Assembly (NCBI GenBank): GCA_048937405.1
Contig: JBHLNF010000013.1
Coordinates: forward strand, 1 to 64,000
Source: Promethearchaeota archaeon
GTDB lineage: Archaea; Asgardarchaeota; Lokiarchaeia; Sigyniarchaeales; SOKP01
Reading direction: 5' to 3'
Length of the DNA stretch: 64,000 nucleotides
The notes below the pieces were generated by a model. It did not search any database. It saw only the letters and a list, made by a program, of their open reading frames with translations, and was not told the DNA's origin. A program made the translations under genes and the position numbers. Shown piece by piece: positions 36,256 to 38,240 of the stretch. Within the stretch, counting starts at the first letter, position 1, and the number at the start of each line of letters is the position of its first letter.

Positions 36256-36429
36256 ATGTCTGAATGGAAAAATAAATTAGAAAATGATACTAATGATTCC
36301 TGTAATAGTGAAATATCTTGTACTGGTTGAGCCATTATTGATGGTGTCATAAACGGGATAAGAAGTCTTAAAAAACGATATAAAAAAAGAAAGCAATTAA
36401 AAATTAAATCAAAAGCTCTCAAGGAATAG
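36256..36429 (+). CDS. candidate small selenoprotein/UGA-readthrough protein A (57 aa, CxxU)
   Basis: MSEWKNKLENDTNDSCNSEISCTG-[TGA 36328-36330]-AIIDGVINGIRSLKKRYKKRKQLKIKSKALKE-TAG; frame open for 32 codons after the TGA. Confidence 0.6.
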
Positions 36430-36434
36430 ATTGT

Positions 36435-36479
36435 TAAATTTTAGAATCTAAACCGATAAATTCCGCAAAAATTTCGAGA
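36435..36479 (+). promoter_or_regulatory. conserved 3' two-hairpin element, copy A (candidate recoding element)
   Basis: TAAATT-TTAG-AATCTA aaccgat AAATTC-CGCAA-AAATTT CGAGA; begins 5 nt after the TAG. Confidence 0.55.
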
Positions 36480-36640
36480 ACTTAACATTATGACTTATTA
36501 TTTTTTATTGACAATAAATAAAAGTCTTAAAAGTTTTATAGAAAATTAGATTATATAATTGAATTTTAATTATTTATAATCACTACTCTTTTATTTATAA
36601 TTTAACAGATAAAAATCAGATACTATAAGGATATAAAATC

Positions 36641-36796
36641 ATGAAAGATGAAATTGACTATTTAGATCTTGGATTTGATGATGAGTGTTACAGTACAAGT
36701 TGAGATATGATGAGAATGTGGTATAAAAGAATACAAAAACTACAAAAGATACATAATGAAAAAATAGAAAATGATAAAGAAATCTCAAAGAATTAA
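36641..36796 (+). CDS. candidate small selenoprotein/UGA-readthrough protein B (51 aa, CxxxxU)
   Basis: MKDEIDYLDLGFDDECYSTS-[TGA 36701-36703]-DMMRMWYKRIQKLQKIHNEKIENDKEISKN-TAA; AAGGA upstream. Confidence 0.6.
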
Positions 36797-36801
36797 ATCA
36801 A

Positions 36802-36844
36802 TAAATCTTAGGATTTAATTTTGAGTTCTGCAAGAACTCAGAGA
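36802..36844 (+). promoter_or_regulatory. conserved 3' two-hairpin element, copy B (candidate recoding element)
   Basis: TAAATC-TTAG-GATTTA atttt GAGTTC-TGCAA-GAACTC AGAGA; begins 5 nt after the TAA; compensatory changes relative to copy A. Confidence 0.55.
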
Positions 36845-36863
36845 TAAGAATAATTTTATATTT

Positions 36864-38240
36864 TTAACTTTTTTTTGGTTCTCCAGGACCTTCTCCTACT
36901 TTTCGATAAATAAATCCTTTTTCTTGCAGTAATTTTTTGTTAAAGATATTTCTACCATCGATGATAATAGGTGTCCTTACTCTTTTTTTTAAATCATCCA
37001 AATCAATATTGTAATATTCACTATGATTTGTTGCAAAGATAAGTACATCAGCATTAGAAACAGCTTTATTAAAATCATTTGTAAGTTCTGTAAGTCTGTA
37101 ATCTCTCTCATTTACATATGGATCATGCGCAATATAGATGATATTATGAGAATGATATCGTCCTTGTAGTACTTTTACAATATTTTCGGTGGGGGTATTA
37201 CGTGTATCATCAGTGTCTGCTTTATAAGAAACACCTAAAAGAACAATTTTAATATTATCTACTAATTTATGAACCTCTCTGAATACATCCTCCATTAATT
37301 CAACCATATGATATGGCATATAGTCATTTAAATTTCTCGAGTTTGGAATAAGCTTTATTTTCTCTTTGTTTTTCTTTTCTGTATATTTATCATAACCGTA
37401 TAATAATAACCAGGGATCCTTCGTTAGACAATGTCCTCCTACACCACTACCAGGATAATGCATCATCCTATCATGTCTGTGATTTATAAATTCAACAATA
37501 TCATATATATTTCTATCGAAATCTTCACATAGTAAAGCCATTTCGTTTGCAAATGCTATATTAACATCTCGATATGAATTTTCAATACATTTAGTTAGTT
37601 CTGCAGTAAGGGTATCTGTTACTTGAAGCTCTTTCTTAACAACCTTTCCGTATAAGAATTTTGCTCTTTCATTGGCTTCCTTACAACCACCTCCAATGAC
37701 TCTAGGAAAATCGGTGATATATTCCAATAATTTTCCTGGCATAACCCGTTCAAAAGAAAATACAAGATAAAAATCTTGCCCTCTTTTGAGTCCACTACCC
37801 TCTTCTAAGATTGTTTGTACTATATTATTTGTAGTACCTGGAGCTACTGTGGATTCAATAATGATTGTAACTCCTTTTTTTAAGTTTTTTGAGATTTTAC
37901 GAGAAACTTCAATTAATGATTCATACCTAGGGATTTTATTTTCATCAACAGGGGTTTGAACATCTATTAAAATATAATCAGCTTTATTAACAAGTTTGTA
38001 ATTATCAGTTACTTTAAATTTCCCATTTTTAATAACTCTAGAAATTAATTCATCTAAACCAGGTTCATCTCCTTCAAAAGGATTCTTACCTTGGTTGAGC
38101 CAATCGATTTTCCATCCTGATCTTTGTGATCTTCGCTGAATTCCAGTTACATAAAATTCATCAACATCAGCAAGTAATGCTGCCATAGGAATACCAACAT
38201 ATCCCATCCCTATGACAACGATATTAGTGGTCATTATCAA
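36864..38240 (-). CDS. nucleotide-sugar dehydrogenase (UDP-ManNAc/GlcNAc dehydrogenase, WecC-like)
   Basis: GMGYVG, VQTP, IIESTVAPGTT, ERVMPG, ENSYRDVNIAFANE, GVGGHCL, SYKADTDDTR, IIDGRN. Confidence 0.92.
   Translation of the reverse strand: MIMTTNIVVIGMGYVGIPMAALLADVDEFYVTGIQRRSQRSGWKIDWLNQGKNPFEGDEPGLDELISRVIKNGKFKVTDNYKLVNKADYILIDVQTPVDENKIPRYESLIEVSRKISKNLKKGVTIIIESTVAPGTTNNIVQTILEEGSGLKRGQDFYLVFSFERVMPGKLLEYITDFPRVIGGGCKEANERAKFLYGKVVKKELQVTDTLTAELTKCIENSYRDVNIAFANEMALLCEDFDRNIYDIVEFINHRHDRMMHYPGSGVGGHCLTKDPWLLLYGYDKYTEKKNKEKIKLIPNSRNLNDYMPYHMVELMEDVFREVHKLVDNIKIVLLGVSYKADTDDTRNTPTENIVKVLQGRYHSHNIIYIAHDPYVNERDYRLTELTNDFNKAVSNADVLIFATNHSEYYNIDLDDLKKRVRTPIIIDGRNIFNKKLLQEKGFIYRKVGEGPGEPKKS

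Follow-up and report, generated by a model that had tools for sequence, protein, structure and literature searches.

A candidate SECIS variant without the kink-turn core, behind two UGA-containing micro-protein families of Promethearchaeota

Two related RNA elements follow two small genes with in-frame UGA codons in the genome of a Promethearchaeota archaeon, on a 64,000-nucleotide stretch of contig JBHLNF010000013.1 (hereafter, the window). Comparison with relatives suggests that the element is probably a SECIS variant that has no kink-turn and serves two undescribed families of micro-selenoproteins of one Promethearchaeota family. Each element would then be the SECIS of the small gene before it, and we infer that it drives the insertion of selenocysteine (Sec) without the AUGA/GA quartet.

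Architecture of the two elements

Each copy forms a three-way junction of 64–65 nt (Table 1). The junction is closed by helix P1 (AUCUC/GAGAU). Stem P2 has 10 bp, its outermost pair often G-U, and is capped by a 12-nt loop with an invariant AAA and with UAG at its end, and the side hairpin P3 carries a YGCAA loop. The consensus reads AUCUC-AA(A)-[10-bp stem, 12-nt loop R(U/A)(A/U)AAAUGNUAG]-U(N)-[6-bp stem, loop YGCAA(A)]-(N)-GAGAU, so that P2 is preceded by AA(A) and followed by U(N).

An earlier note on this DNA had described two similar plus-strand elements, and these do lie where it placed them, each drawn copy starting 5 nt after a stop codon (the TAG of ORF A and the TAA of ORF B). The second of its two hairpins is real and corresponds to P3. 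The first one (TAAATY-TTAG-RATYTA) has to be given up, as over 63 orthologous copies only 63.5% of its cells are paired, no better than in shuffles, and the 5' arm of the true helix starts upstream, at the P2 positions given in Table 1. The drawn extents were also too short, and it is a third helix, P1, that closes the element. Conservation in the 3' flanks of orthologues begins upstream of the earlier-drawn start; in many of them the stop codon is situated 15–30 nt earlier and the same nucleotides are still kept, while both stops of this genome fall inside the 5' arm of P2.

The minimum-free-energy fold of copy B (36775-36852) is exactly the junction described above, at -17.9 kcal/mol (z -4.25, with none of 200 shuffles as good), and at the earlier-drawn extent this copy yields two hairpins with a z of -3. 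Copy A at that extent has no two-hairpin fold (z -0.9). This copy is eroded: it retains 8 of the 10 pairs of P2 and 4 of the 5 pairs of P1, and its P3 is limited to 5 bp of A-U in a shifted register. It is in fact the most eroded member, though its TGA is intact.

Archaeal transcription terminates at oligo-T. The oligo-T tract that follows element A is, judging by its sequence and place, the probable end of the ORF A transcript, and the T-runs past element B are a probable terminator region; T-runs are found 3' of the element in most orthologues.

Table 1. Positions in the window of the two UGA-containing genes, their elements and the T-rich tracts that follow
Feature	Position	Strand	Description
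ORF A	36256..36429	+	57 codons; in-frame TGA 36328-36330 (codon 25), motif C-T-G-U
ORF A stop	36427-36429	+	TAG, within P2 of element A
Element A	36416..36480	+	Three-way junction P1/P2/P3
Element A P1	36416-36420 with 36476-36480	+	
Element A P2	36423-36432 with 36445-36454	+	Loop 36433-36444 (GUUAAAUUUUAG)
Element A P3	36458-36463 with 36470-36475	+	Loop 36464-36469 (CGCAAA)
Oligo-T tract	36502..36507	+	About 20 nt past element A
ORF B	36641..36796	+	51 codons; in-frame TGA 36701-36703 (codon 21), motif C-Y-S-T-S-U
ORF B stop	36794-36796	+	TAA, within P2 of element B
Element B	36782..36845	+	Three-way junction P1/J12/P2/P3
Element B P1	36782-36786 with 36841-36845	+	
Element B J12	36787-36789	+	
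Element B P2	36790-36799 with 36812-36821	+	Loop 36800-36811 (AAUAAAUCUUAG)
Element B P3	36823-36828 with 36834-36839	+	Loop 36829-36833 (UGCAA)
T-runs past element B	36861..36876	+	Overlap stop of convergent minus-strand gene (36864-38240)

Conservation and covariation

In an alignment of 89 copies from 10 genera of one family, which was made on the covariance model R1 and is thus fitted to that model, 94.8% of cells pair and 20 of the 21 pairs show compensatory changes; none of 500 shuffles reaches any of the five measures used, and slid controls pair in 64% of cells at most. MAFFT alignments, which are independent of the model, give 93–94% pairing. On these alignments, P2 is paired in 93.5% of cells, with 7 of its 10 pairs compensated (slid controls, 27–56%), and P3 in 93%, with compensation at 4 of 6 pairs in the B-type copies; P1 is paired in 97% of cells but is nearly invariant and changes through wobble only. 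The corresponding values for the 89 copies are 96% of cells for P1 and 93% for P3, all six pairs of which are compensated.

The AAA and the final G of the P2 loop are the same in all 89 copies and the U and A preceding that G are conserved at 97–98%, while the G, C, A and A of the P3 loop are conserved at 99, 89, 89 and 90%, respectively. The earlier description of TTAG and GCAA as invariant loops was therefore right in that UAG and GCAA are close to invariant, but TTAG is just the end of a 12-nt loop and not a loop in itself.

The same note had reported the AUGA/GA core to be missing, and this is borne out, since the positions of the core covary as Watson–Crick pairs. Columns 13-49 covary as standard pairs (AU 24, GU 22, GC 21), as do columns 14-47 (AU 41, GC 36). 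A kink-turn or k-junction was sought as tandem G-A at the bases of P2, P3 and P1 and rejected, as the positions in question either covary as Watson–Crick pairs or lack a conserved G, column 53 having G in 60% and A in 36% of copies.

Covariation also bears on the strand. Copy A has two A-C mismatches that, read on the minus strand, become G-U pairs, and this had raised the possibility that the functional RNA is the antisense one. Over 63 copies, however, P1 and P2 contain 72 G-U cells against 11 A-C cells on the plus strand, which identifies the sense strand as the functional RNA. The covariance models match only the plus strand at the elements, bar a minus-strand stray of 21 bits, and copy A is simply eroded. 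A functional antisense strand is thus barely credible.

Covariance searches and distribution

Two models were built, R1 solely from B-type copies and R2 solely from A-type copies. Copy A is detected by R1 with a score of 40.6 bits (E 1.4e-4 for the genome of 4.47 Mb) and copy B by R2 with 57.1 bits (E 2e-8); their scores on the elements of their own type are 90.3 bits for R1 on element B and 71 bits for R2 on element A. The likeness of the two copies is far beyond chance. No further significant copy was detected in the genome by R1, R2 or nhmmer --max. A partial look-alike with a AAAAACUAG loop and a AUUCCGCAAGGAA hairpin was seen on the minus strand of another contig (C17:176291-176339, 19–28 bits). 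It was considered as a third copy and rejected: it follows a long coiled-coil ORF that has no TGA and it lacks the P1 and P2 pairing, so that it represents either a chance match or an old relic. The Rfam models, including SECIS_1 to SECIS_5, match nothing in the window at their gathering thresholds, and at E values of up to 10 over positions 36380-36880 they give chance-level matches only.

Across the order, R1 has matches in 104 of the 130 genomes of the family, which represent 10 genera, and in none of the 19 genomes of three sister families. There are one or two copies per genome, about 370 nt apart.

Two micro-protein genes probably read through UGA

A six-frame search of relatives found ORFs A and B in tandem in 33–34 of the 36 genomes of the genus, with the TGA nearly always kept. 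The TGA of ORF A is present in all 31 orthologues of the genus, and CTGU-type ORFs are also found in other genera; the ORF-B profile (A4) recovers 60 forms of ORF B with TGA and four with TGT (Cys). In the extracted orthologues, both peptides are conserved on both sides of the TGA, as MSEWKNKL...CTGU-GIIDG.I in ORF A and as DYLDLEFDDDCYSTSU-GMLNMWYRRAQKL in ORF B, where the conserved residues 3' of the TGA include MWYRRAQKL. Past the TGA, the entropy at the three codon positions is 0.79/0.53/1.14 in ORF A and 0.73/0.45/0.83 in ORF B. Position 2 is thus the least variable and position 3 the most variable in both families, which is a coding pattern.

These data can be set against a simpler view, in which both ORFs end at the UGA, yielding peptides of 24 and 20 residues, and everything downstream, including the element, is non-coding RNA or untranslated region. 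Gene callers would indeed stop at the TGA, and tRNA-Sec went undetected in the assembly by RF01852 and ARAGORN (see below). This view, however, is at odds with the codon-position pattern of both families, with the conserved post-TGA motifs (MWYRRAQKL and IIDG.I), with the TGT that replaces TGA in four genomes and with the presence of Sec machinery and other Sec genes in the genome. We consider it very improbable. As judged from their sequences, ORFs A and B are real genes that are most probably read through the UGA.

Neither the ORF A nor the ORF B protein has a Pfam match above cut-off. The CTGU and C-x4-U families are also absent from the 7 Asgard families (PMC11227280) and the 11 archaeal families (PMC13188914) listed previously.

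Two further observations concern these genes. The complete genome G006, from the same genus, carries five elements and three copies of ORF B (L059, G006:C1:189200-192500; L022). At its second locus, an A-type element is accompanied by two ORF B genes in tandem, roughly 1 kb from each other; both have a TGA and are followed by an element, which indicates that the ORF pair has been duplicated there. In the window, sub-threshold matches to archaeal C/D-box sRNAs are seen inside ORF B around its TGA (36674-36728, plus strand; the best is sR5, with 16.9 bits against a gathering threshold of 40). Words resembling AUGAUGA in the DDE and DMMR codons give rise to these matches, which are probably due to chance.

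Link of the element to the in-frame UGA

The element is found exclusively behind the two families of small ORFs with a conserved in-frame TGA (CTGU and CY.TSU). The earlier note had proposed a covariance search for matches downstream of TGA-containing ORFs; the link to such ORFs holds in every genome examined, and the idea of a generic element behind ordinary genes fails. The check covered 20 loci (18 genomes of other genera, with G024 and G087 from the same genus) and 24 R1 matches. At 21 of these 24, an ORF of the CTGU or CY.TSU type ends at the element. For two matches in g22 (L071 and L076), a TGA-bearing ORF B was found by the ORF-B profile, the one at L071 being just upstream, and the remaining match is an orphan in G024. 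Counted over the other genera, 21 of 22 matches had such an ORF ending at the element, the exception being L071. When the ORF-B profile was cross-tabulated with the R1 matches, all 60 TGA forms of ORF B had the element within about 15 nt. Co-occurrence of element and ORF across orthologues is not independent evidence, since the two are inherited together.

The spacing of the element had been thought to be fixed to the second stop codon, and the reverse is seen. The distance from the UGA to P1 is 83–86 nt in 31 orthologues of ORF A and 78–85 nt in 32 orthologues of ORF B, whereas the stop codon wanders relative to the start of P1 from -8 to +29 nt in ORF A and from -11 to +15 nt in ORF B, that is, over 26–37 nt. 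The element is therefore fixed to the UGA (at 78–86 nt) and not to the stop codon.

Replacement of Sec by Cys provides a further test. The Cys forms of ORF B in G029, G032 and G087, evidently one clade, have no intact element. In G029 and G087 a decayed relic is left, consisting of the 3' arm of P2 and the 5' arm of P3, and in these two genomes the adjacent ORF A still has its TGA as well as its element. The fourth Cys form, in G022, has kept the element, with substitutions at two positions that are otherwise about 98–99% conserved. There are thus only two informative Sec-to-Cys events, one clade with loss and one genome with retention. The genome G024 has lost ORF B, and its orphan copy has five substitutions at otherwise near-invariant positions; it is situated on the minus strand (L089/L053; G024:C84:6089-6159), about 50 nt past the ORF A element and with no ORF B before it, and looks like a decaying leftover of the deleted gene.

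The main competing interpretation is that of a family-specific 3'-UTR element that is inherited with the genes and has no recoding role. It could be a fold that acts in stability or in 3'-end formation, or a regulatory fold that binds a protein, for example the two small proteins, by way of their very basic tails. Such an element would be expected to co-occur with its ORF, as any cis element does, and the constant location at the 3' end of the message with T-runs after it, the missing kink-turn quartet and the retention behind the Cys form in G022, given so few independent Sec-to-Cys events, all agree with it. Yet this interpretation offers no reason why the element of the Cys clade should have decayed to a relic next to a TGA gene that keeps its own copy, or why it is the distance to the UGA, and not that to the stop, that stays constant. 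It also leaves aside the features that the element shares with canonical SECIS, namely the loop sequence, the stem length, the closing helix and the GCAAG hairpin. We consider it unlikely and favour a SECIS function of the element.

Sec machinery and canonical SECIS elements of the same genome

The genome (4.47 Mb in 29 contigs, 28.9% G+C) encodes SepSecS, with a score above the curated cut-off, a PSTK-like protein and a SelD whose active-site codon is TGA, that is, a Sec-containing SelD. A tRNA-Sec was not found by RF01852, whose matches are tRNA-Gly and tRNA-Arg, or by ARAGORN with introns allowed, which is weak evidence as ARAGORN sees just 21 tRNAs in the whole genome. The assembly is rated 100% complete and none of these 21 genes is in the 64-kb window, so that the tRNA genes of this lineage evidently escape ARAGORN.

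A pattern scan revealed four canonical lokiSECIS elements in the genome, referred to here by their contigs as C7, C13, C19 and C28; their stem has 9 bp and their loops, for example AAAAAUUGUAG and AUAAAAAUUAG, have 11 nt. Two of them, one being C19 (at C19:205046), are located behind Sec genes of the VhuD type and one behind an ORF with two consecutive UGA codons. Folded with their flanks, C13, C19 and C28 form a closing helix, the AUGA-hairpin-GA unit and a side hairpin, and C7 forms the side hairpin but no closing helix; UGCAAG is present in the side hairpin of C19 and C28 only. With its filters off, R1 aligns C28, C7 and C19 in the right strand and register, at only 10–12 bits (E 0.1–0.3), which is not significant by itself. 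The 3' UTR of selD folds with a closing helix and a hairpin that has a UGCGA loop.

Two of the canonical elements deserve a brief description. The one at C7:547321 on the plus strand (L119; G000:C7:547250-547550) has AUGA, 9 bp, the loop AUAAAAAUUAG and GA, and lies 17 nt past an ORF with two adjacent in-frame TGAs (...AVHADUUADVMKERL...). The plus-strand match at C13:236030 (L118; G000:C13:235950-236250) has the three-armed lokiSECIS pattern, but no ORF with a UGA evidently terminates close to it; 358 nt lie between it and the end of the closest short ORF upstream. The idea that ORFs A and B share a second, canonical SECIS was considered and rejected, as element B is followed by the convergent gene after only about 20 nt and the spacer between A and B lacks conservation.

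Proposed mechanism and implications

In the mechanism that we envisage, the mRNA would fold into the three-way junction about 80 nt past the UGA. P1 would close the junction, P2 would present an unpaired AAA...UAG loop akin to the apical loop of lokiSECIS, and P3 would present a loop of the GCAAG type. The fold would still be intact when the ribosome pauses at the UGA, and could then recruit the Sec-specific elongation machinery, either directly or via an unknown Asgard SECIS-binding factor, so that Sec-tRNA would be delivered at the UGA in place of the release factor.

A more far-reaching proposal, which we put forward only tentatively and hold to be somewhat doubtful, is that in Asgard archaea of the Loki type the AUGA/GA kink-turn is dispensable, and that the features read by the machinery are the AAA...UAG loop and the GCAAG side hairpin as displayed by a three-way junction. 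The SECIS reader of pre-eukaryotic times would then not have been a kink-turn binder of the L7Ae/SBP2 type, and SECIS searches that demand AUGA_GA would systematically miss Asgard selenoproteins like the two micro-protein families described here.

Selenoprotein searches filter on the AUGA/GA core, and in this element the core has been swapped for ordinary pairs, with all other features of the Asgard signal kept. Should the element be functional, it would tell apart the needed and the unneeded parts of the signal, it would suggest that a still unknown archaeal SECIS-binding factor docks on the apical loop and the side hairpin, and it would bear on the origin of the eukaryotic SECIS/SBP2 system. 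It can be viewed as a natural 'mutant' for binding and reporter experiments.

Comparison with known signals

The AUGA/GA quartet has been treated as the core of both eukaryotic and Asgard signals (PMC4989117, PMC11227280). The closest relative of the element described here appears to be lokiSECIS, or the Asgard type I eSECIS-like element, which has been described by Mariotti et al. 2016 (PMC4989117) and by Huang, Xiao and Zhang 2024 (PMC11227280). It consists of AUGA, a 9-bp stem, an A-rich 11-nt loop that ends in AG, and then GA (PMC4989117). Like lokiSECIS, our element is located directly past or overlapping the stop codon of a UGA-containing gene (at -11 to +29 nt in 63 orthologues) and has a stem of 9–10 bp with an apical loop of 11–12 nt that is A-rich at its start and ends in AG; like the lokiSECIS elements of this genome, it has a helix that closes the fold and a GCAAG-bearing side hairpin. 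It differs in that its stem is preceded by no AUGA and followed by neither GA nor AA, with covarying Watson–Crick or G-U pairs in their place, and in its junction strands of 0–3 nt, compared with 2–9 nt in the canonical elements of this genome. Unlike the published lokiSECIS, it serves two gene families that are missing from the published lists. The earlier note had offered a choice between a different recoding signal and a 3' element. Its link to UGA stands, but a signal of a different kind does not, given the SECIS-like long hairpin, closing helix and GCAAG hairpin.

Types I and II of the Asgard signals both retain the AUGA_GA core (PMC11227280). The type II element of SPS/selD (PMC4989117, PMC11227280) resembles ours in being a multi-arm fold in the 3' UTR. 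In type II, however, the extra stem is in the apical region above the AUGA/GA core, whereas here the side arm is at the base and a core of that kind is lacking. With the eukaryotic SECIS (forms 1 and 2) the element shares the position in the 3' UTR, the unpaired adenosines of the apical loop and action at a distance from the UGA, but the eukaryotic signal depends on a kink-turn quartet that SBP2 recognises through its L7Ae domain, and this quartet is missing here. No SBP2 is known in Asgard archaea (PMC4989117).

The SECIS of the euryarchaeal Methanococcales has a GAA_A bulge and a G-C upper stem (PMC9622424, PMC11881835). It is likewise an archaeal hairpin signal in the 3' UTR whose binding partner is unknown, but neither copy of our element nor its consensus has the asymmetric GAA/A bulge or the upper stem of three G-C pairs, and its helices are rich in A-U. 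The bacterial SECIS, a hairpin inside the ORF and immediately 3' of the UGA, differs in its placement, as the element described here starts 78–86 nt after the UGA.
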